DNA from: Gemmatimonadota bacterium
Lineage (GTDB): Bacteria > Gemmatimonadota > Gemmatimonadetes > Palauibacterales > KS3-K002
DNA length: 34,775 nucleotides
Direction: 5' to 3'
Assembly (NCBI GenBank): GCA_039589155.1
Contig: JBDHHX010000001.1
Coordinates: 1-34,775 of the forward strand
Shown here: positions 4,130-20,058 of the stretch, in pieces
Position numbering within the stretch: position 1 is the first letter of the stretch
Layout of the letters: the number at the start of each line of letters is the position of its first letter
The notes under the pieces: generated by a model
The model's database searches: none
Told to the model about the DNA's origin: nothing
Seen by the model: only the letters and a program-made list of their open reading frames with translations
Made by a program: the position numbers and the translations under genes

Positions 4130-4627
4130 CTAGCGGTGGCTGGCGTAGACCTCCGTGTTCCCTTCCTGATCGAAGGTCAAAACATCGTACGGCTGCACCC
4201 GACCATCCGGCGTCGCCATGCCCGGTGACCCGGCCGGCATGCCAGGTACCGTCAGACCGCTGATCGTTGGTCTCTCCTCCAGCATCCGCAGGATGTCGTC
4301 GGCGGGAACGTGGCCCTCCACCACGTAGCCATCGATCAACGCCGTGTGACAGCTGGCCAGCTCGCCGCTCACGCCGTTGCTACGCTTGAACGCGACAAGC
4401 TCCGCGTCGCTTACCTCCACCGGCGTAACCGCAAAACCGCTCTCGCGCAGGTGACCCACCCACGCCTCGCAACAGCCTCAAGTGGGGGTCTTGTAGACCG
4501 TGATCGTCAGAGCCGACGCCAGCACCTGCGGCTCGGCCTCCGACCCGTTCTTCTGCAGCGTGGACAAACCCACGCCTACGACCGCTCCGAATACGATCGC
4601 GCCAACCATGAATCCTTTCGGGCTCAT
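4130..4627 (-). CDS. copG: DUF411/CopG-family periplasmic metal(Cu)-binding protein interrupted by an in-frame TGA at 4478..4480 (candidate selenocysteine; alternatively a pseudogene or sequencing error)
   Basis: Track ORFs 4478..4723 and 4130..4459 are in the same frame. Read through, the sequence is MSPKGFMVGAIVFGAVVGVGL (signal/anchor)...TITVYKTPT-[TGA]-GCCEAWVGHLRESGF...SCHTALIDGYVVEGHVPADDI...GLTVPGMPAGSPGM. The DUF411 hallmarks (CGCC, SCHTA, EGHVP, PGMP.GSPGM) are all present except that TGA replaces the first Cys. The ATG at 4627 is preceded by GGAAGG. Confidence 0.6.
4445..4470 (-). promoter_or_regulatory. Candidate SECIS-like hairpin beginning 8 nt after the in-frame UGA
   Basis: The RNA reads GCGAGG-CGUGGGUGGGUCA-CCU(G)CGC. 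That gives a 6-bp stem with one bulged G and a G/U-rich apical region that can extend by UGG/UCA pairing. It was folded by eye only. Confidence 0.3.
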
Positions 4628-4729
4628 CGCACCTTCCGCCTTCCGAGGGGGCTCGTTTTGTGGACGCGCGAATCTCGCCCGATCGGACCGCTCACGCAAG
4701 TCCGGCTCGCCGAACGGGGGCACCGCCTC

Positions 4730-4758
4730 TTGCCGAAGAAAACCCGAAGATATATCTT
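4730..4758 (+). promoter_or_regulatory. Possible sigma70 promoter for the radical SAM gene, overlapped by a 12-bp perfect palindrome
   Basis: TTGCCG, a 17-nt spacer, then TATCTT. The palindrome AAGATATATCTT (4747..4758) covers the -10 element. Confidence 0.3.
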
Positions 4759-4806
4759 TTAGGCCCTGAATACTTGACCTTTCGGCCCCAACCCGAAGGA
4801 GCTCTC

Positions 4807-5862
4807 ATGAGGGCGTTACCCGTCCGCGGCCGCGGCGCCTCCTACAATCCCGCCAACCGGTTCGAGCCGATCGAGGTCGTGCGGGACCGCTGGGACGACC
4901 CCGACGACCCTGCGCCGCGGACCCAGCTGTTCCGCGATGACACCCGCACGATCATCGCGCGCAACGACAGTCCTGACCTGGGCTTCGACGCCAGCATCAA
5001 CCCGTACCGAGGTTGCGAAATCGGCTGCAGTTATTGTTACGCACGCACCTACCACGAGTATCTGGGCCTGTCGGCCGGCCTCGATTTCGAGACGAAGATC
5101 TTCGTGAAGGGTGACGCAGCAGAACTGCTGCGCGTGGAACTGTCTCGTCCCGGTTGGCGGCCGCAGGTGCTGGCGATCTGCGGCGTCACCGACGCGTATC
5201 AGCCGGCGGAGCGCCGGCTGGGTATCACGCGGCGCTGCCTGGAAGTACTGGCCGAGTACCGGAACCCGGTGGGCGTGATCACCAAGAACTACCTGGTGAC
5301 GCGGGACATCGATCATCTCGAGGAGCTGGCCCGCTACGATGCGGTGAGCGTGACTCTCTCGATCACGACGCTCGATCGCCGGCTGCAGCGGTTGATGGAA
5401 CCGCGGGCGTCATCGCCGGAACGGCGACTGGCCGCGATCGCGAAGCTGGCGGAGGCCGGCATACCCGTGAGCGTGAACCTGGCGCCTGTGATTCCCGGGC
5501 TGACCGACCACGAGATGCCGCGCATCCTCGAGGCGGCGCGGGAGGCCGGAGCGAGGGGCGCCGGCTACCTGATGCTGCGTCTGCCCATGGGAGTGAAAGC
5601 GCTGTTCAACGAGTGGTTGGAGGGCCACTACCCGGAGCGCAAAGACAAGGTGCTGAACCGTCTGCGATCGATGCGGAACGGCGGCCTGGACGACTCACGG
5701 TTCGGGGTGCGCTTCAGGGGCGAAGGTCCGTTCGCCGAGCAGGTCGCGGACATGTTCCGAGTGACGTGCCGGCGGTTGGGACTCAACCGTGACCGGTTCA
5801 TCCCCTCTGCTGCCGCCTTTCGCCGTCCCGTCCGTGGCGTTCAACTGCGGTTGTTCGACTGA
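4807..5862 (+). CDS. Radical SAM protein, PA0069/Rv2578c-like (SPL/'DNA repair photolyase'-like family)
   Basis: Contains the CEIGCSYCY (CxxxCxxC) motif. The N-terminus RGRGASYNPANRFEP is typical of the PA0069 family. The ATG at 4807 is preceded by AAGGAG, and the upstream part of the track ORF (4660..) is an extension. Confidence 0.85.
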   Translation: MRALPVRGRGASYNPANRFEPIEVVRDRWDDPDDPAPRTQLFRDDTRTIIARNDSPDLGFDASINPYRGCEIGCSYCYARTYHEYLGLSAGLDFETKIFVKGDAAELLRVELSRPGWRPQVLAICGVTDAYQPAERRLGITRRCLEVLAEYRNPVGVITKNYLVTRDIDHLEELARYDAVSVTLSITTLDRRLQRLMEPRASSPERRLAAIAKLAEAGIPVSVNLAPVIPGLTDHEMPRILEAAREAGARGAGYLMLRLPMGVKALFNEWLEGHYPERKDKVLNRLRSMRNGGLDDSRFGVRFRGEGPFAEQVADMFRVTCRRLGLNRDRFIPSAAAFRRPVRGVQLRLFD

Positions 5863-12251: not shown

Positions 12252-13352
12252 ATGCTGGCCACCTGCCAGCCCACGCTTTACCTTGCAAACTCAATGTCCG
12301 TGCACGATTTCCCCAGCCGTTTCCGTCAGGCGGTCGGCGCCGGCACCGCCCTCGTCGAGGCACCCGGTACCGGCGACAGCCTGATGACTTTCGCCCGCTC
12401 GGTCGCTGCGGGCCTCTCCGATGAGCCCAAGTGGCTGCATTGCCGGTTCCTCTACGACGCCGAAGGCAGCCGCTTGTTCGAGGTAATCACCGAACAGCCC
12501 GAGTACTATCCGACACGCACCGAAGCGGCGATCCTGCAGGCGCACGCCGAGGAGATCCGCGATTTGACCGGACCCGTCACCCTGGCCGAGCTGGGCTCGG
12601 GTTACTCAGTCAAGACCGAGTACCTGCTGAACGCCTACTCCAGCCACGACAGGGACGTGCTCTACGTTCCGGTGGACGTCAGCGTCAGCGCGCTGCGCGA
12701 GGCGAACCGCGCCATATCGGACAACTTCCCGGAAGTCCAGTTCACCGGTATCGCCGGCCCCTACCGCAGCGCGTTTCCCGTTCTGCGCCAGCTCTCGCCG
12801 CAGATGGTCGTTTTCCTGGGTAGCACGATCGGCAACTTCAATCCGGCGGAGACGACGGCATTCTTCAGCGCGCTCTCCGGACACTTGCCGGAGCACGACT
12901 TCTTCCTGCTGGGCATCGACCTGGTGAAGGACATCGATGTCCTGGAGGCGGCCTACAATGACGCGGCAGGGATCACCGCCCGCTTCACGACGAACTACTT
13001 CGCGCGGCTAAACCGCGAGCTGGGTTCCGACGTTGACCTGGACAACATCGAGCATGTCGCGCGCTGGAACCCCGAGCTGGAGCGGATGGAGATCTTCACG
13101 CTCTTTCATACGACCCAGCAGGTGTACATCGAGCCGCTCGACATGACCTTCGAGATCGAGGCCGGCGAGCGCGTCCTCATCGAGATCAGCCGCAAGTTCC
13201 GCCTGCCCGACATCACCAGAGAGCTCGGCAAGTACGGGTTCCGCTTGCGTCGATCCTTCACCGACCCAAAGGGTTGGTTCGGACTGCTGTTGTTGGAACG
13301 CGTCGATGACAGGGTGTTGCGGCGCGCGTCCTACCCCGCGACCGACCGCTAG
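12252..13352 (+). CDS. egtD: L-histidine N-alpha-methyltransferase (EgtD family; makes hercynine)
   Basis: Contains FLYDAEGSRLFEVITEQPEYYPTRTEAAIL, ELGSGYSVKT, FLGSTIGNF and AYNDAAGITARFTTN, which are the characteristic EgtD blocks. ATG at 12294 is an alternative start. Confidence 0.85.
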   Translation: MLATCQPTLYLANSMSVHDFPSRFRQAVGAGTALVEAPGTGDSLMTFARSVAAGLSDEPKWLHCRFLYDAEGSRLFEVITEQPEYYPTRTEAAILQAHAEEIRDLTGPVTLAELGSGYSVKTEYLLNAYSSHDRDVLYVPVDVSVSALREANRAISDNFPEVQFTGIAGPYRSAFPVLRQLSPQMVVFLGSTIGNFNPAETTAFFSALSGHLPEHDFFLLGIDLVKDIDVLEAAYNDAAGITARFTTNYFARLNRELGSDVDLDNIEHVARWNPELERMEIFTLFHTTQQVYIEPLDMTFEIEAGERVLIEISRKFRLPDITRELGKYGFRLRRSFTDPKGWFGLLLLERVDDRVLRRASYPATDR

Positions 13353-13355
13353 GCG

Positions 13356-16300
13356 ATGCACGAAGTGACCCTGAGCGGTCGCGCCGCGGCCGAAGCCAAT
13401 ACGCTCATCGAAAGAGACGGACTCTGCGGGATCTGCCCGGCAGGTTGCTGGGTGACCGTCGCATTGGAGGACGGCTCGATCAAGAGCGTACGCCCCCAGG
13501 ACGACCCGATGGGGATGATCTGCACCAACGGCGTCCACTCGGCGGAGATCGTCCACGACCCGGACCGGCTGCGCTATCCGATGCGCCGCAGCGGACCGAA
13601 GGGCACACACGAGTTCGAGCGTATCAGCTGGGACGAGGCGTTCGATATCATCGTCGAAAAGCTGCAGGGCTTGAAAGAGGAGCACGGGCCGGAGTCGACG
13701 GCGATATACACCGGCCGCGGCAGCTTCGAGCTGGCGCTCTGCGACGTCTTCCAACCGGACGGCGTCGCCATCTCGTCCGCTTCATCCGTTCTCTTTCCGT
13801 TCGGCTCGCCGAACACACTGGGCGTCGGCGCGCTCTGCTACGTCTCCTTCGCCATGATCGCGCCGCACTCGACGCTCGGTGAGTACTACCACACGATGGA
13901 CCACGACATCGAGAACGCCGAGCTCATCGTGGTCTGGGGCGCCAACCCGGCGACCGACTCGCCGCCGCTCGCACACGAGCAGATCAAGCGCGCCGTGCTG
14001 AGGGGAGCCGAGGTCATCTGTATCGACCCGCAGCGAAACCACACGGCCCGCGAGGTCGGCGCCGAGTGGATACCCGTCCGCCCCGGGACCGATGGCGCAC
14101 TGGCCCTCGGCATGATCAACGTGCTGATCGAGGAAGAGCTGTACGACGAAGCGTTCGTCAAAGACTGGACGCTTGGGTTCGACGAGCTGGCCCAGTACGT
14201 CCAGCACTTCCGGCCGGAGGTCGTCGAGGACATCACCGGCGTGCCGGCCGAAACGGTGGTCAACCTGGCACGTCGTCTCGCCCGCGCGCGCGGCGCCTGC
14301 CCCGTCATGTATACCGGGCTCGAGTACTCGGACAGCGGCGTACAGGCAATCCGCGCCGTCTTTACGCTTTGGGCGCTGGCGGGTCAGCTCGACGTGCCCG
14401 GCGGCCTCAACATCCGCATGCGGGAAAACCAGTTTCCGATCAACCGGTCCGGCCTGGTCGCGAACCCGAATCCGAAGAAGGCCCTGGGCCGCGATCGATT
14501 CCCGGTCTACAGCCTGTACCGGGGCGAATCGCACGCCATAGCGCTCCCCGACTCCGTGCTCAAAGGCGAGCCGTACAAGGTCCGTGGGCTCATCATCCTC
14601 GGTGGTTCCATCATTACCGCCTGGCCAAACCCATCGGTTTGGCGCGAAACGCTGGGCGCCCTCGATTTCATGGTCAGCATCAACCGGCATCACACCGCCG
14701 ACTCGGCCTACGCCGACATCGTGTTGCCGGCGACCACCATGTACGAGATCACCTCGTACATGACCTACGGCCCGATCTTCAAGATCAGGGAGAAGATGCT
14801 GGAGCCGGTGGGTGAAGCGCGCAACGATTTCCTCATCCTGGCGGAACTGGCCAGTCGCCTCGGCTACGGCCACCTCTATCCACAGACCGAGGAGGCGCTG
14901 CTGCGCCGCGTCCTCCACGGCTCAGGCTTCACACTCGAGGACGTGATCACCGCCGGCGGCGCGGTTCAAGTTCCCACCGTGATGACGCAGTACAAGAAGT
15001 GGGAGAAGGGCGGCCTGCGCGAAGACGGGGAGCCCGGGTTCAGCACTCCGTCAGGGAAGTTCGAGATCGCTTCCAGCATCCTGGAAGAACACGGCTACGA
15101 TGCGCTCCCCGTTTACACCGAGCCCGGCGAGGGTCCGCTGGCGCAACCGGCGCTGGCCGAGAGTTACCCGCTGGTCTTCAACTCGGGCGCCCGCATCTTC
15201 GCCGACTTTAGATCCCAGCACCACGGCGTTGTCGGACTCAATCGCAAAGCGCGCGTACCGCTGGTGACGATGAACACGAGCGATGCCGCACAACGCGGAA
15301 TAGAAGACGGCGATTGGGCTTGGGTCGCTACGCCACGCGGCCGGGTGAAGTACCGTGCGCGCGTGACCGATGACATTGCCGCCGGCGCCATAGACGCCAA
15401 CATGGGCGGCGGCGGTCCGCTGGGCCCGCAAGAGTGGCAAGACTGCAACGTGAACGACCTGACCGATCTGAACCGTTACGACCCGATCTCCGGCTTCCCG
15501 GTCTACAAGGCGCTGCTCTGCGATGTGGTGAAGGCGGAGGACTCGAACGGCGCAGGTCGCCGGACCGAAGAAGAAAGCGAAGCCGTGATCCGGGCGAGCG
15601 AGATCGAAAAGCCAATGCGCTACGTCTACCTGGATCACAACGCGACCACGCCGGTGGACCCCGAAGTGCTGGATGCTATTATGCCGCACTTGCAGGCCGC
15701 TTACGGCAACCCGTCAAGCATCCACAGCCGCGGAAGCGAGGCGCGCGATGCGGTAGAGTCGGCGCGCCGCACGGTCGCCCAGGCTCTGGGCTGCACGGCA
15801 CGCCGAGTCATCTTCACCGGCGGCGGCTCGGAGTCCGACAACCTGGCCATCAAGGGCGTGGCGCTGGCCAGGCGCTACCAGGGCAACCATATCATCACCA
15901 CCACGGTCGAGCACCCGGCGGTGCTGAGAACCTGCGAGGCGCTGCAGGAGTTCGGCTTCGAGATCACTTACCTGGATGTCGATGAGACCGGCTGCGTCGA
16001 TTCACAGGCATTGAAGGACGCGATGCGCCCGCAGACGACACTGGTCAGCGTGATGATGGCAAACAGCGAGGTGGGGAGCATCAATCCCATCGCCGAGCTG
16101 GCGGGCATCGCACGCGAGGGCGGCGCCCTGTTCCATACCGATGCAGTCCAGGGGCTGGGCAAACTGCCCATCGACGTGGACGAGCTGGGCGTCGACCTGT
16201 TGTCGGTCTCCAGCCACAAGCTCTACGGACCGAAGGGTGTCGGTGCTCTCTACGCGCGCAAAGGCATCAAGCTCCACCCCGTGATCCACGGCGGCGGCCA

Positions 16301-16781
16301 GGAGCGGAAGCTGCGGGCCGGCACCGAGAACGTCCCCGGTATCGTCGGTTTCGGGAAAGCCTGCGAGCTGGCCGTGCGGCGACTCAACCACAACGAGATG
16401 GACCGCGTGCTCCAGCTACGCGACCGCTTGGAGGCGGGAATAAGGGAGATCGTTCCCGAGGCCCGACTCAACGGCCACCCCGAGCATCGGCTCCCCAACA
16501 CGCTCAACATGACGCTGCCCGGCATGCGCGGCGAGTCGCTGGTCCTGTTCATGGACCGCCGCGGCGTCTACTTCTCTTCCGGCTCCGCCTGCAAGTCGGG
16601 GAATCCCGACCCGTCCCACGTGCTAACAGCGATGGGGCTCTCGGACGATGATGCCCACTGCGCTATCCGGCTCACGCTGGGCGTGGGAACCACAGAAGAA
16701 GACGTGGACTACGTGCTGGAAAGCCTGCGACAGATCATCGGCGACCGCGGTAGCAGCGTCCGTTTCGTAGCCTGCCGCTAG
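13356..16781 (+). CDS. Fusion of a molybdopterin/tungstopterin oxidoreductase (acetylene-hydratase-like MopB) with a NifS-type cysteine desulfurase: metallopterin-dependent ergothioneine synthase (MES)-like
   Basis: N-terminal Fe-S motif C24-G-I-C27-P-A-G-C31...C56, followed by MopB-like blocks over aa ~1-745. From M754 onward the sequence is a class-V aminotransferase: YLDHNATTPVDPEV..., PLP lysine SSHK955LYGPKG, and catalytic SSGSAC1079KSG. It starts 3 nt after the egtD stop. Confidence 0.8.
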   Translation: MHEVTLSGRAAAEANTLIERDGLCGICPAGCWVTVALEDGSIKSVRPQDDPMGMICTNGVHSAEIVHDPDRLRYPMRRSGPKGTHEFERISWDEAFDIIVEKLQGLKEEHGPESTAIYTGRGSFELALCDVFQPDGVAISSASSVLFPFGSPNTLGVGALCYVSFAMIAPHSTLGEYYHTMDHDIENAELIVVWGANPATDSPPLAHEQIKRAVLRGAEVICIDPQRNHTAREVGAEWIPVRPGTDGALALGMINVLIEEELYDEAFVKDWTLGFDELAQYVQHFRPEVVEDITGVPAETVVNLARRLARARGACPVMYTGLEYSDSGVQAIRAVFTLWALAGQLDVPGGLNIRMRENQFPINRSGLVANPNPKKALGRDRFPVYSLYRGESHAIALPDSVLKGEPYKVRGLIILGGSIITAWPNPSVWRETLGALDFMVSINRHHTADSAYADIVLPATTMYEITSYMTYGPIFKIREKMLEPVGEARNDFLILAELASRLGYGHLYPQTEEALLRRVLHGSGFTLEDVITAGGAVQVPTVMTQYKKWEKGGLREDGEPGFSTPSGKFEIASSILEEHGYDALPVYTEPGEGPLAQPALAESYPLVFNSGARIFADFRSQHHGVVGLNRKARVPLVTMNTSDAAQRGIEDGDWAWVATPRGRVKYRARVTDDIAAGAIDANMGGGGPLGPQEWQDCNVNDLTDLNRYDPISGFPVYKALLCDVVKAEDSNGAGRRTEEESEAVIRASEIEKPMRYVYLDHNATTPVDPEVLDAIMPHLQAAYGNPSSIHSRGSEARDAVESARRTVAQALGCTARRVIFTGGGSESDNLAIKGVALARRYQGNHIITTTVEHPAVLRTCEALQEFGFEITYLDVDETGCVDSQALKDAMRPQTTLVSVMMANSEVGSINPIAELAGIAREGGALFHTDAVQGLGKLPIDVDELGVDLLSVSSHKLYGPKGVGALYARKGIKLHPVIHGGGQERKLRAGTENVPGIVGFGKACELAVRRLNHNEMDRVLQLRDRLEAGIREIVPEARLNGHPEHRLPNTLNMTLPGMRGESLVLFMDRRGVYFSSGSACKSGNPDPSHVLTAMGLSDDDAHCAIRLTLGVGTTEEDVDYVLESLRQIIGDRGSSVRFVACR

Positions 16782-16792
16782 CCGGTGACCGG

Positions 16793-18652
16793 TTACCGAT
16801 TACCGGACATTGCTTCGAAGACCTCGAGGGAGAAATCCACTTTGCCGAACGGCGCACTAACCTGCACGCCCTGCACGTGTGGCTCGAGCTGCGCCACCAT
16901 CTCACGAGCTATCAATAGACCCTCCGCCATGCCGGCTTCCTTGCCCACGTCACTGGCGACGCGCATGCGCTCGAGCACGTGGTCGGGTACCTCGACGCCT
17001 GGCACTTCGTTGTTCATGAACTCGGCGTTGCGGTAAGAGACCAACGGCCAGATCGCGGCGACGACCGGGATGCGCACGTGATCGATGCGCTCCAGGAATC
17101 CCAAGAACTTCTCCACGTCGAAGATCGGCTGCGTTATCGCGTACTGCGCGCCGGCATCCACCTTCCACTCGAAATGGTGGATCTCGTAGTCGGGATCGAT
17201 CGAGGCATGATTCACGCCCACGCCGTGGTAGAAGGCGGTGGGCGCTCCGATGGGGTTGTCGCCTGGATCGAGACCTTCGTTCATCTTACGCACCAGGTTG
17301 GTGAGACCCACCGAGTCGATGTCGAAGACCGCCGTGGCTTCGGGATACGGACCCATACGCGGCGGATCGCCCGTGATGATCAGCAGGTTGCGCAGGCCCA
17401 GCGCGTGTGCGCCCAGAAGGTCGCTCATCATGCCCAGCAGGTTACGATCGCGGCAGCAGTAGTGCGGTATCGTCTCGATGCCGACCTCTCGCTCGATGAT
17501 GGCGCAGCTGGCCAGTACACCCATCCGCATCATCGCGCGCGGCCCGTCGGGCACGTTTACCGCATCGACGCCGGCTTCCTTGAGCTTGCGCACTTTCTCG
17601 ATGACGTCGTCCGGCTCGCCGCCCTTTGGCGGCAAGATCTCCACGCTGGTCACCGGGATGCCCGCAACGATCTTGGCCGCAAGCTGCGATCGCTGGGCCA
17701 CAGGAACCTGCTTGACGGCCGTAGTCGCCCTGCTCTCGGCCTCGCGCACCGTCTCGGCCACTACCGTGCGCCGCCGCGGCCGCAGCGCGCGCACCTGGCT
17801 GGCCATAGCGGCGATGTGCTCCGGCGTCGTACCGCAGCAGCCGCCGACGAAGCGGACGCCAGCCTGGATCAGCCGGCGCGTATACTTGGAGAAGTACTCC
17901 GGCGAGGCCATGTACATCTTGCGGCCTTCGATCTCCCGGGGCAGGCCGGCGTTCGCCATGGCCGAGAGCGGCCGGCTGGTGACCTCCGCCATTATCTGGA
18001 TCGCCTTCAGGATCATCGCTGGGCCGACGCTGCAGTTGAGCCCGATCACATCGGCGCCGAGTGCGTCCAGGTCTCGTCCGATTCGCGCTGGGTCGACGCC
18101 ATAAACCGTCTCGCCGCCGACTTGAACGGTCATTTGGGCGACGATCGGCAAATCCGCCGCCTCGCGGCAACCGAGGATCGCCTGCTCGATCTCCGACAGG
18201 TCGCTGAACGTCTCCACGATGAAGAGATCGGCACCGCCGTCGGCCAGCGCTTCCGCCTGCTCGCGGAAGAACTCACGCGCTTCCTCCCGCCCGGTCGGCC
18301 CGTACGGCTCGATACGAATGCCCAGCGGTCCGATAGAGCCCGCCACGTATAGATCATCGCCGGCGACCTCGCGTGCCAACTCGGCCGCCCTTCTGTTGAT
18401 CTCGTGAACCCGATTGCCGAGCCCGTGCTGGTCGAGCCGTACCCGGTTGCCGCCGAAGCTGTTGGTCTCGAGGATCTCCGCTCCCGCCTCCTTGTAGGCG
18501 CGGTGCACTTCGCGGACCAGCTCCGGTCGCTTAAGGTTCACCTCGTCGTAGCTGACGTTGATGAACACGCCGCGCCGGTACAGTTCGGTGCCGAGCGCGC
18601 CGTCGAAGAGGTGCGCGCTGCCGTCGTCGATCAGCGCTCGGAAATCTGGCAT
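16793..18652 (-). CDS. yitJ: Bifunctional homocysteine S-methyltransferase / 5,10-methylenetetrahydrofolate reductase (YitJ type)
   Basis: The N-terminus has an Hcy-binding domain (LFDGALGTELYRRG...GLNCSVGP...GGCCGTTPEHI) and the C-terminus has a MetF domain (VEILPPKGG...HYCCRDRN...ITGDPP...). The ATG at 18652 (MPDFRAL) is preceded by GAGAGGA. The track start at 18676 is a TTG inside the terminator U-tract. Confidence 0.85.
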   Translation of the reverse strand: MPDFRALIDDGSAHLFDGALGTELYRRGVFINVSYDEVNLKRPELVREVHRAYKEAGAEILETNSFGGNRVRLDQHGLGNRVHEINRRAAELAREVAGDDLYVAGSIGPLGIRIEPYGPTGREEAREFFREQAEALADGGADLFIVETFSDLSEIEQAILGCREAADLPIVAQMTVQVGGETVYGVDPARIGRDLDALGADVIGLNCSVGPAMILKAIQIMAEVTSRPLSAMANAGLPREIEGRKMYMASPEYFSKYTRRLIQAGVRFVGGCCGTTPEHIAAMASQVRALRPRRRTVVAETVREAESRATTAVKQVPVAQRSQLAAKIVAGIPVTSVEILPPKGGEPDDVIEKVRKLKEAGVDAVNVPDGPRAMMRMGVLASCAIIEREVGIETIPHYCCRDRNLLGMMSDLLGAHALGLRNLLIITGDPPRMGPYPEATAVFDIDSVGLTNLVRKMNEGLDPGDNPIGAPTAFYHGVGVNHASIDPDYEIHHFEWKVDAGAQYAITQPIFDVEKFLGFLERIDHVRIPVVAAIWPLVSYRNAEFMNNEVPGVEVPDHVLERMRVASDVGKEAGMAEGLLIAREMVAQLEPHVQGVQVSAPFGKVDFSLEVFEAMSGNR

Positions 18653-18668
18653 GGCAATGATCCTCTCT

Positions 18669-18710
18669 ACAAACAAACGCGACCCGGCTTCGCTTCGAGT
18701 CGGGTCGCGT
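18669..18710 (-). terminator. Intrinsic terminator in the yitJ leader (expression platform)
   Basis: The minus strand reads ACGCGACCCG-actcgaagcgaagc-CGGGTCGCGT, a perfect 10-bp stem, followed by TTTGTTTGT. It ends 17 nt before the ATG. Confidence 0.55.
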
Positions 18711-18852: not shown

Positions 18853-18957
18853 GGTTTTGTTCGCAGCATGGCGGCTTGGCGGGACCCGCACGGCCCTTAG
18901 TAGCGTTCTCTCAGAAATGGAATTCCGATCCGAAAGCACTTGTCCGGAGGGCGTGAC

Positions 18958-20058
18958 ATGCGAGCAGCCCGTCAGCTGGTCCTAGCTCTGGTGATCCTCG
19001 CCGCGGCCACAATCTTCACCACTGATTTGCGGGGCCAGTCGCTTACCCGGCGAACCCCGAACATCTACGGCGCCTGGGTGACCTCGCCGTGGAACCTGTT
19101 CTTCGCCTTCAACCATCGGTTCCGCATAATCGGCGACGAGAACCTGGGCGACATCTTTGGCGATGCGTTCCTCAAGAACTCGCCGACGTTCAACCTGGCG
19201 CTCGGTCTCTGGTCGCCGCTGATGGCCGGCGTTCTCTACTCCAGCGAACCGGCGATCGTCAACGGTACGAAAGGGAACGAGTGGTTTCCCTACCTCAAGT
19301 GGGCGCCGCTGAGGAGAGATCACTGGTCGGTGTCTTTGTTGGGTGGTTATAACTCGCAGGCGGAAAGTGCGGACGGCGTACTGGCGGGGCAGCTCGATGT
19401 GGGCGGATTCGAGTTCCTGGGCGAGGTGCGCGGGTTCAGCGACGCGCTTCACACCGGCGAAGGGGGTCTGGCCCTGGCTGGCGGTCTAAGCTTTCGAGTC
19501 ACCGCTTACATCGCCCTGAGCGCTGACGTCGGCGGTTTCGTGGCGGGCCCGGATACTGGTGTCGCCTGGAGCGGCGGCATCGCGCTGGGCATTCCGTTCA
19601 CGCCGCACACTTTCTCCCTCCAGGTCAGCAACGCGATCGCGACGACACCGCAGCAGGCGTCGTTCAATAGCGCCGTGACGCGCGGCAGCGATCTGGTGTG
19701 GGGCTTCGAGTTCACGGTGCCGTTCAGCGGATTCGCCCGCTGGGGTCGGCTGTTCGATCCGCGTCAGACCCAGGCCGCAGACGATGGGCGCACGCCGGCC
19801 AGGGTCGCCGAGGTCGACATCAAGCGGCACGCCTTTCAGGGCGAAACCGTGCTGGTGCCGGAAGACGGACTTGTTCGCTGGGTCAACCGCGACCCGGTGT
19901 CACACACCGTGGTCGGCATTGGTGCCGAATGGAAGTCACCCGTGATCGCGCCGGGCGAGACGTACACGATACGCGTCGAGCGTCCGGGCAGGTACGAGTA
20001 CCGCTGTTCGCTTCACGACCACGAGTCGGGGTTCGTACTGGTAGAGCCGGGCGGCTAG
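18958..20058 (+). CDS. Secreted beta-barrel-like domain (DUF5777-like impression) fused to a C-terminal cupredoxin domain
   Basis: The ATG at 18958 is preceded by GGAGGG. The signal peptide is MRAARQLVLALVILAAATIF. The C-terminus ...VRWVNRDPVSHTVV...GRYEYRCSLHDHESGFVLVEP shows the His...Cys-x2-His cupredoxin pattern but lacks the usual axial Met. Confidence 0.6.
   Translation: MRAARQLVLALVILAAATIFTTDLRGQSLTRRTPNIYGAWVTSPWNLFFAFNHRFRIIGDENLGDIFGDAFLKNSPTFNLALGLWSPLMAGVLYSSEPAIVNGTKGNEWFPYLKWAPLRRDHWSVSLLGGYNSQAESADGVLAGQLDVGGFEFLGEVRGFSDALHTGEGGLALAGGLSFRVTAYIALSADVGGFVAGPDTGVAWSGGIALGIPFTPHTFSLQVSNAIATTPQQASFNSAVTRGSDLVWGFEFTVPFSGFARWGRLFDPRQTQAADDGRTPARVAEVDIKRHAFQGETVLVPEDGLVRWVNRDPVSHTVVGIGAEWKSPVIAPGETYTIRVERPGRYEYRCSLHDHESGFVLVEPGG

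Follow-up and report, generated by a model that had tools for sequence, protein, structure and literature searches.

CopG-like proteins of the DUF411 family (PF04214) are periplasmic and thioredoxin-like, and their CxCC motif, together with two Met residues, binds a tetranuclear copper cluster (PMC7558416). They contribute to copper resistance in anaerobic conditions, and the proposal has been made that CopG either oxidizes Cu(I) to Cu(II) or hands copper over to multicopper oxidases (PMC7558416). Here we analyzed a gene of this family in a stretch of 34,775 nucleotides (nt) from a Gemmatimonadota bacterium (GenBank assembly GCA_039589155.1, contig JBDHHX010000001.1, positions 1 to 34,775 of the forward strand), which is referred to as the window. 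The gene occupies 4130..4627 on the minus strand and differs from known CopG genes in that the first Cys of its CxCC motif is encoded by UGA. A first-pass annotation of this DNA had read it as a selenocysteine (Sec)-containing CopG, and this reading was supported in our analysis by a UGA/Cys pair, deep conservation of the UGA, selection on a hairpin downstream of it, co-located selenoprotein genes and a standard genetic code. We put the probability that the UGA at 4480..4478 is decoded as Sec at roughly 0.85.

The closest described selenoproteins are those with a thioredoxin fold (Sec-Trx, Sec-Grx, DsbA-like and Prx-like; UxxC). Like them, the window protein would have Sec in place of the first Cys of a Cys-rich motif that ends strand beta-1, and it shares with them the Sec/Cys homologue pairs and a hairpin of the selenocysteine insertion sequence (SECIS) kind within the coding sequence, just 3' of the UGA (PMC13188914). 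It is different from them in three respects: the motif is UxCC and not UxxC, the corresponding site of the Cys homologues is a metal cluster and not a dithiol/disulfide couple, and the family is uncatalogued. A Sec at a soft-metal site is also predicted in several metal handlers (the SO_0444 family Cu/Zn efflux transporter with its UxC, MerT-like proteins, a cation-transporting ATPase, MbdU and the YHS-domain selenoprotein), and Sec occupies a soft-metal-ligating position in FdhA and [NiFeSe] hydrogenase (PMC13188914). However, all of these belong to other folds or families, and the Cys counterpart in the present case bridges a tetranuclear copper cluster. The first-pass annotation had doubted that DUF411 is an accepted selenoprotein family, and the sources bear out this doubt. 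In the 2026 catalogue, which covers 119 families of prokaryotic selenoproteins, DUF411, PF04214, CopG and UxCC have no entry (PMC13188914), NCBIfam release 20 has no selenoprotein model for DUF411, and DUF411 is unmentioned in the 2022 review, in the Global Ocean Sampling (GOS) and Tara-type surveys and in deep-Sep. Literature searches retrieved nothing that combines DUF411 with selenoprotein, and the papers returned for COG3019, or for CopG together with selenocysteine or selenoprotein, were irrelevant, an absence which is no proof. GOS_A, a hypothetical protein of the 2008 GOS study, was considered as a possible DUF411 member and, judged by its description only, rejected as unlikely, as it bears no COG or Pfam label there. 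Judged by the sources checked, DUF411 is a selenoprotein family not so far listed, and one that relies on the bacterial mechanism already established.

The 165-codon frame runs on the minus strand from an ATG at 4627..4625 to a TAG at 4132..4130, and its sole in-frame stop is the TGA at 4480..4478 (residue 50). The two ORFs (open reading frames) that had been said to be parted only by this TGA do lie in the same frame, and the junction claimed for them, VYKTPT-[UGA]-GCCEAWVGHL, was reproduced in translation. The upstream piece alone would be a peptide of 49 amino acids (aa) with a hydrophobic N-terminus, as described before, and the downstream piece begins, as a mechanical ORF, at a GTG inside the motif (4459, the Val of WVGHL). 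When read through, the product has 165 residues, MSPKGFMVGAIVFGAVVGVGLSTLQKNGSEAEPQVLASALTITVYKTPT-U-GCCEAWVGHLRESGF...SCHTALIDGYVVEGHVPADD...VPGMPAGSPGM..., and the family signature is intact 3' of the UGA (SCHTA, EGHVPA and PGMPAGSPGM), again in agreement with the earlier description. A putative ribosome-binding site, GGAAGG, lies 4 nt 5' of the ATG (4632..4637, minus strand) and is followed by an N-terminal hydrophobic signal/anchor segment, MSPKGFMVGAIVFGAVVGVGLSTLQ (4553..4627, minus strand), for which comparable N-termini are found in homologues. The U-G-C-C motif, the selenium version of the copper-cluster motif CxCC, spans 4469..4480, and the Pfam DUF411 core (residues 90-137, SCHT...EGHVP...PGMPAGSPGM) spans 4217..4360, both on the minus strand. 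A reassignment of UGA was ruled out and the genetic code is standard, because TGA is the ordinary stop of 11 of the 24 genes predicted in the window.

Family membership, as surmised by the first-pass annotation, was confirmed with Cys placed at the UGA. The match to Pfam DUF411 covered residues 90-137 with E=4e-27 and 94.1 bits, the cutoff being 27. P. aeruginosa CopG (6WIS/6WJE), the only solved relative, aligned with E=3e-28 over residues 40-163 of the query and 3-122 of 6WIS_A. This alignment crosses the UGA and places Sec on Cys13 of 6WIS_A, the first Cys of N-C-G-C-C. NCBIfam release 20 gave as its best match only a faint, 17-bit mycoredoxin-like one. Upstream of the UGA, residues 40-49 align to CopG residues 3-12, that is, within the fold. 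An alignment with homologues had been proposed as a check for UGA/Cys pairs at this column; the UGA falls on a Cys that is invariant in 14 full-length Cys-form homologues, as are C52, C53, W56, V57 and H59, and many homologues carry UGA there. The gene is like CopG in its domain match over residues 40-163, its putative N-terminal export segment, the position of x-G-C-C and the SCHT, EGHVP and PGMPxGSPGM blocks. Of the CopG-defining features, the metal-binding motif is present as U-G-C-C, with the first ligand encoded by UGA, and would be complete only with Sec or Cys inserted there; PGMPAGSPGM is conserved.

In public annotation the TGA is treated as a stop. All gene callers (NCBI, JGI, ENA and Logan) report ORFs of 49 aa and 106-109 aa, unnamed or labelled 'hypothetical protein', in every cluster examined (window 4130-4723; L272/L273). 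These calls would be right if the locus were a pseudogene or an assembly error, or if it encoded a 49-aa peptide and a separate, 109-aa truncated DUF411 starting from the GTG at 4459; that GTG is usable as a start, and one relative tolerates Leu at the position of the UGA. Nevertheless, we consider a true stop very improbable. The TGA and the 36 nt that follow are identical in three other metagenome-assembled genomes (MAGs) at NCBI (GCA_039590055.1, GCA_039591755.1 and GCA_039591015.1), so that four assemblies agree, the window's included; the contigs of the three are 99.7-99.9% identical to the window, and the 109-aa downstream ORF is encoded identically. The read-through product was used as query against 5.8 billion proteins, and 6636 relatives were obtained. 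Those five that came nearest to its C-terminal part (74-92% identity) were all ORFs of 108-109 aa starting at the same in-motif Val/Met, and the DNA of four of these five (loci L001-L005) has TGA at the same codon and differs at flanking synonymous sites.

Conservation of the UGA extends much further. A degenerate DNA pattern for U-G-C-C-x-x-W-[V/I/M]-x-H-L (TGAGGNTGYTGYNNNNNNTGGNTNNNNCAYYT) was scanned over the GTDB genome and JGI metagenome collections, and 120 matches were listed for each collection (240 in total), so that all counts derived from them are lower bounds. At least 237 diverged DUF411 genes have TGA at this codon (237 of the 240 matches listed). In these genes the upstream frame is open, has a hydrophobic N-terminus and ends in ...VYKxPT, and the domain downstream is intact; only L020, L053 and L110 were chance matches. 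The matches listed from the genome collection are MAGs throughout. They comprise about 28 from Gemmatimonadota, 23 from Vicinamibacteria, 14 from other Acidobacteriota, 15 from Burkholderiales/Betaproteobacteria, 11 from Rokubacteria/Methylomirabilota, about 10 of the Deltaproteobacteria type (Desulfuromonadales, Myxococcota and others), 5 from Chloroflexota and 3 from Binatia, with single ones from Tectomicrobia, Nitrospinaceae, Verrucomicrobiia and Pseudomonadales. The window gene belongs to a large Sec/Cys-polymorphic family whose recoded form is carried by hundreds of uncultured bacteria from soil, groundwater and marine habitats, and which is widespread among uncultured members of Gemmatimonadota, Vicinamibacterales and other Acidobacteriota, Rokubacteria, Burkholderiales, Deltaproteobacteria, Binatia and Chloroflexota.

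The part downstream of the UGA is clearly under purifying selection, and it can be made only by reading through the UGA: over the downstream 107 codons, comparison of the window with L001, L002, L004 and L005 gave a nonsynonymous divergence (dN) of 0.05-0.20 and a synonymous divergence (dS) of 0.24-1.07, which puts dN/dS at about 0.15-0.2. For the family in general, a separately initiated gene downstream is no option, because 92 of 229 distinct sequences (40%) have no start codon at the position of the window's GTG (+7). Such a downstream-only product would also be without the export segment, without strand beta-1 and without any of the CxCC motif, and it would leave the alignment of residues 40-49 inside the CopG fold without account. 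The locus is neither a sequencing error nor a pseudogene. Two irregularities were observed among the assemblies. In the near-identical contig JBDHGE010000092.1 (L271), 202 bp corresponding to window 4613-4814 are missing, namely intergenic sequence and the first five codons including the ATG at 4627; Met7 is left as a possible start, and the gap may have arisen in assembly or be a natural deletion. Furthermore, two MAGs labelled Streptomycetaceae and Bifidobacteriaceae (L009 and L078) carry Sec-DUF411 sequences that look like those of Burkholderiales or Acidobacteriota, so these are probably mis-binned contigs or mislabelled bins.

A bacterial SECIS, as defined for E. coli fdhF and in the bSECISearch consensus, is a hairpin within the ORF, just 3' of the UGA, that exposes an apical G. 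In the present family the hairpin begins about 11-12 nt past the UGA, and its apical loop, with a G that is often part of GU or GGU, lies at 17-23 nt, in agreement with that definition. The first-pass annotation had reported a hairpin with a G/U-rich loop at 4445..4470, beginning 8 nt past the UGA. The hairpin and its G/U loop do exist, but the proper span is 4465..4445 (minus strand) and the start lies 12 nt past the UGA. It is formed by the codons for A-W-V-G-H-L-R as GCGUGGGUG-GGU-CACCUGCGC, with 9 bp, the loop GGU about 21 nt past the UGA and a free energy of -13.9 kcal/mol. Since the W, V/I, H and L of this region are conserved amino acids, selection was tested at the nucleotide level, beyond that on the protein. 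Synonymous codon usage was compared in 217 distinct genes with that in the rest of the same genes, and it was strongly skewed only at codons +5, +8, +10 and +11, with +12 to +19 at background. At codon +8, Gly was GGT in 65% (background 13%), Val GTT in 61% (12%), Asp GAT in 61% (30%) and Ser TCA in 90% (9%). At codon +5, Ala was GCG in 81% (43%) and Gly GGA in 58% (13%), and the rare Leu codon CTA rose from 2% to 16% at +10 and the Gln codon CAA from 21% to 68% at +11.

Folding gave the same picture when synonymous codons were resampled from each gene's own usage as the null. For codons +4 to +13 (30 nt from 9 nt past the UGA), the mean minimum free energy (MFE) was -11.6 kcal/mol vs -7.9 for the null, 3.7 better, with a mean z of -1.48, and in 91% of the 217 genes the region was more stable than its null mean. 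Elsewhere in these genes, three control regions had z of -0.04 to -0.13. One pair of the stem also covaries. Val (G..) occurs with His CAC in 144 of 172 sequences and Ile/Met (A..) with CAT in 42 of 57 (Fisher p=3e-15), so that the first base of Val/Ile, which is non-synonymous, changes with the third base of His, which is synonymous, in a compensatory manner from G-C to A-U. Among sequences of the A class, the stem His is encoded by CAT in 73%, vs 43% for the other His codons of the same genes. When the 9-bp helix was placed on 150 sequences, 77.5% of cells were paired vs 29-55% with slid partners, and in none of 500 shuffles did pairing or covariation come up to the observed values. In 212 of 229 sequences the apical loop starts 17-23 nt past the UGA, and a G is found within the first two loop nucleotides in 195 of 229. 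These results demonstrate nucleotide-level selection for a hairpin at SECIS distance.

The hairpin is like a bacterial SECIS in its placement within the ORF, its distance from the UGA and its apical G. It is unlike a generic SECIS in that the stem is built from invariant protein-motif codons (W-V/I-x-H-L), in at least two registers. Type I is that of the window; type II, GGGAUG-GGUCUCA-CAUCUC, is found in Vicinamibacterales and accounts for their preferences for GGA, TCA, CAT and CTC. The Burkholderiales versions form a perfect 12-bp stem of -20.9 kcal/mol. A single consensus hairpin for the whole family was tried and rejected: RNAalifold retained only a 4-bp core (-1.7 kcal/mol), which is small because at least two registers exist. 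As an external control, the DNA of Cys-form genes was folded; only nine were available (five from two viral-contig scans and four from contig look-ups), which makes this control illustrative and leaves the within-gene background as the main one. These nine gave about -7 kcal/mol with z near 0, save a Gemmatimonadota orthologue (L279, z=-2.3).

Identity to the window protein is 72-94% for the nearest Sec-forms and 67% for the nearest Cys-forms. A rough neighbour-joining tree of 131 Sec and 75 Cys representatives showed large pure-Sec clades and at least 14 Sec/Cys switches, a count that gives the order of magnitude only, as the tree rests on about 120 columns. One Cys-form, P0012 (L279, CP070722.1 949002-950189), comes from a complete Gemmatimonadota genome and lies in the same synteny of radical SAM, DUF411 and GH116 genes as in the window; P0012 and the window gene are an orthologous Sec/Cys pair. 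The hairpin region of L279 still folds well, as if the switch between Sec and Cys had been recent.

Indirect support for Sec decoding in the hosts was obtained from genes on the same contigs. On six contigs with a UGA-DUF411 gene lies a second gene interrupted by an in-frame UGA; it belongs to an established selenoprotein family and has its UGA at the canonical Cys (family list of PMC13188914). These genes are DsbA-like DYV-U-PWC in L120 (Binatia) and L147, AhpC/TSA-redoxin W-U-PYC and TT-U-PLC in L081 (Desulfuromonadales) and L208, DUF3179 W-U-PLCGT in L045 (Vicinamibacterales) and OsmC LGA-U-MMS in L197. A generic scan for other in-frame UGA genes returned mostly antisense-frame noise in this GC-rich DNA, and only candidates confirmed by Pfam were kept. 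The second UGA genes of L120, L147, L081, L208, L045 and L197 are probably split ORFs in public annotation as well. Separately, a BNR/Sortilin-like beta-propeller gene with a conserved in-frame UGA (NPDCF-U-GW) was observed in two Rokubacteria loci, L027 (reverse strand, ~3948) and L162 (reverse strand, ~2265); its frames are open and conserved on both sides at both loci, and it is a possible candidate for another uncatalogued selenoprotein.

Several observations weigh against a Sec-containing CopG. The first-pass annotation had suggested folding 4400..4480 as a check. When 4400..4490 was folded as a single sequence, the MFE was -34.4 kcal/mol and no better than dinucleotide shuffles of this GC-rich DNA (z=-0.02), so the significance of the hairpin is carried solely by the synonymous-codon tests and the comparison among genes. 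The codons of the conserved W, V/I, H and L make up the hairpin core, so that some of the structure would be there in any case. The external Cys-form control is small (n=9), and one of its members, L279, folds well too. In the relative L006/P0003 (60% identity), TTA (Leu; L006 3652-3654) stands where the others have TGA, one substitution away, and most of the downstream hairpin is kept; the residue may therefore be dispensable in some contexts. A natural change from Sec to Leu or a base-call error would account for this TTA. As to the decoding machinery, the window and related loci amounting to 1.5 Mb yielded no tRNA-Sec with ARAGORN and no selA, selB or selD; tblastn with approximate sequences of E. 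coli SelA, SelB and SelD against all loci gave only weak GTPase matches, one of which is LepA, and the window has no Rfam match at the gathering threshold. Moreover, a Gemmatimonadota origin is demonstrable for none of the six contigs that carry a second, established selenoprotein gene. Finally, the window gene is flanked by genes for GH116/MGH1-like glycoside hydrolases and a radical SAM protein and stands, unlike classical copG, outside any cop, cus or cutO operon, with no linkage in the window to copper resistance or oxidase genes such as copA, cusCBA or cueO/cutO.

That no Sec machinery was found in the window or the related loci would agree with a UGA that is recoded without Sec, either to Cys, with SelB carrying a tRNA(Cys) that resembles tRNA(Sec), or to Trp or Cys by near-cognate read-through that the hairpin stimulates. 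SelB-dependent insertion of Cys is described for some bacteria, and the hairpin and the conservation of the UGA would fit it too. However, known selenoprotein families with an active-site UGA on the same contigs, in several lineages, are the usual signature of Sec decoding. Furthermore, the position is that of a metal- or redox-active Cys, a classic site of Sec, and the switches between UGA and UGY are many (at least about 14 in the rough tree), as in other Sec/Cys families. Recoding to another amino acid is for these reasons improbable in our judgement, and we regard Sec as the most likely residue inserted.

With Sec at this position, translation would start at the ATG at 4627, and the hairpin at 4465..4445, with its G/U loop about 21 nt past the UGA, would act as a bacterial SECIS and presumably recruit SelB with Sec-tRNA(Sec). 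The product would be exported by means of its N-terminal hydrophobic segment, as homology to periplasmic CopG suggests, and the mature domain would carry U-G-C-C for C-x-C-C. Because the motif and two Met of P. aeruginosa CopG bind a Cys-bridged tetranuclear copper cluster, Sec would most likely serve in the handling of Cu(I)/Cu(II), as a copper ligand or as a redox-active nucleophile. Homology leads one to expect that the window protein would do the job of CopG with a selenolate for the first thiolate. Whether Sec does serve as a copper ligand or redox residue is, in our estimate, an even chance.

The genomic context gives the copper link some support. As with classical copG, some Sec-form genes adjoin a multicopper oxidase or CusF gene (PMC7558416): among species representatives of the Sec-form loci, the upstream neighbour is a multicopper oxidase in 6 of 97 and the downstream neighbour is CusF in 4 of 96. 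A conserved operon was sought among the Sec-form loci, and no other recurrent partner was found in their heterogeneous contexts. Most Sec-form loci, like the window gene, are thus not beside copper genes, which would suit a protein into which Sec is inserted and which is not concerned with copper, being instead a thiol/selenol oxidoreductase or a handler of another metal or metalloid (Hg, As or Se). The thioredoxin-like fold and the faint mycoredoxin-like match in NCBIfam point in the same direction, and many predicted selenoproteins concern Hg or As (PMC13188914). However, all the CopG-defining blocks are kept (CxCC, SCHT, EGHVP and PGMPxGSPGM with its Met residues), and the genes beside a multicopper oxidase or CusF speak for copper; we consider a non-copper role unlikely, though clearly less so than recoding without Sec. 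The hosts differ as well, since the Sec-form is carried mostly by uncultured Gemmatimonadota, Acidobacteriota and Rokubacteria and CopG itself was studied in Proteobacteria.

Tentatively, and at somewhat less than even odds, these observations can be joined with a copper role into one picture. The Sec-containing CopG may be a natural protein whose selenolate ligates or bridges a multinuclear copper cluster, used by abundant and largely aerobic lineages of soil, groundwater and marine habitats (Vicinamibacterales, Gemmatimonadota and Rokubacteria) that are not deemed rich in selenoproteins, and it may tie the availability of selenium to periplasmic copper handling. Its SECIS may have arisen time and again from a hairpin that the codons of the invariant W-V-x-H-L encode in advance, and this would explain the many independent switches between Cys and Sec. 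In the literature searched, no experimental demonstration of a natural Cu-selenolate site was found.

If the gene does encode a Sec-containing CopG, a widespread family of at least 237 further genes in about ten phylum-level groups would be added to the prokaryotic selenoproteome, one that was missed by both the 119-family catalogue and the NCBI annotation models, and the public gene calls for these MAGs would be systematically wrong at this locus. It would offer a natural system for work on Cu-selenolate chemistry and on what Sec gains over Cys in an oxidising periplasm. It would also suggest that selenium use is commoner than assumed in uncultured Acidobacteriota, Gemmatimonadota and Rokubacteria of soil and groundwater, and TGA-GGN-TGY-TGY...TGG would be a simple marker for finding Sec-decoding members.

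Other genes of the window were observed in passing. A homocysteine S-methyltransferase/MTHFR fusion is encoded at 16793-18676 (minus strand), and a 372-aa protein with a C-terminal cupredoxin-like domain at 18940-20058 (plus strand), about 14 kb from the Sec-CopG gene; no link to it was established for either. At 12252-16781 (plus strand), a gene for an EgtD-like histidine methyltransferase (PF10017, E=1e-99) is followed directly by one for a 1141-aa fusion of a molybdopterin oxidoreductase and a class-V aminotransferase (cysteine desulfurase). We take this pair to resemble the metallopterin-dependent ergothioneine synthase (MES) pathway of Caldithrix abyssi.

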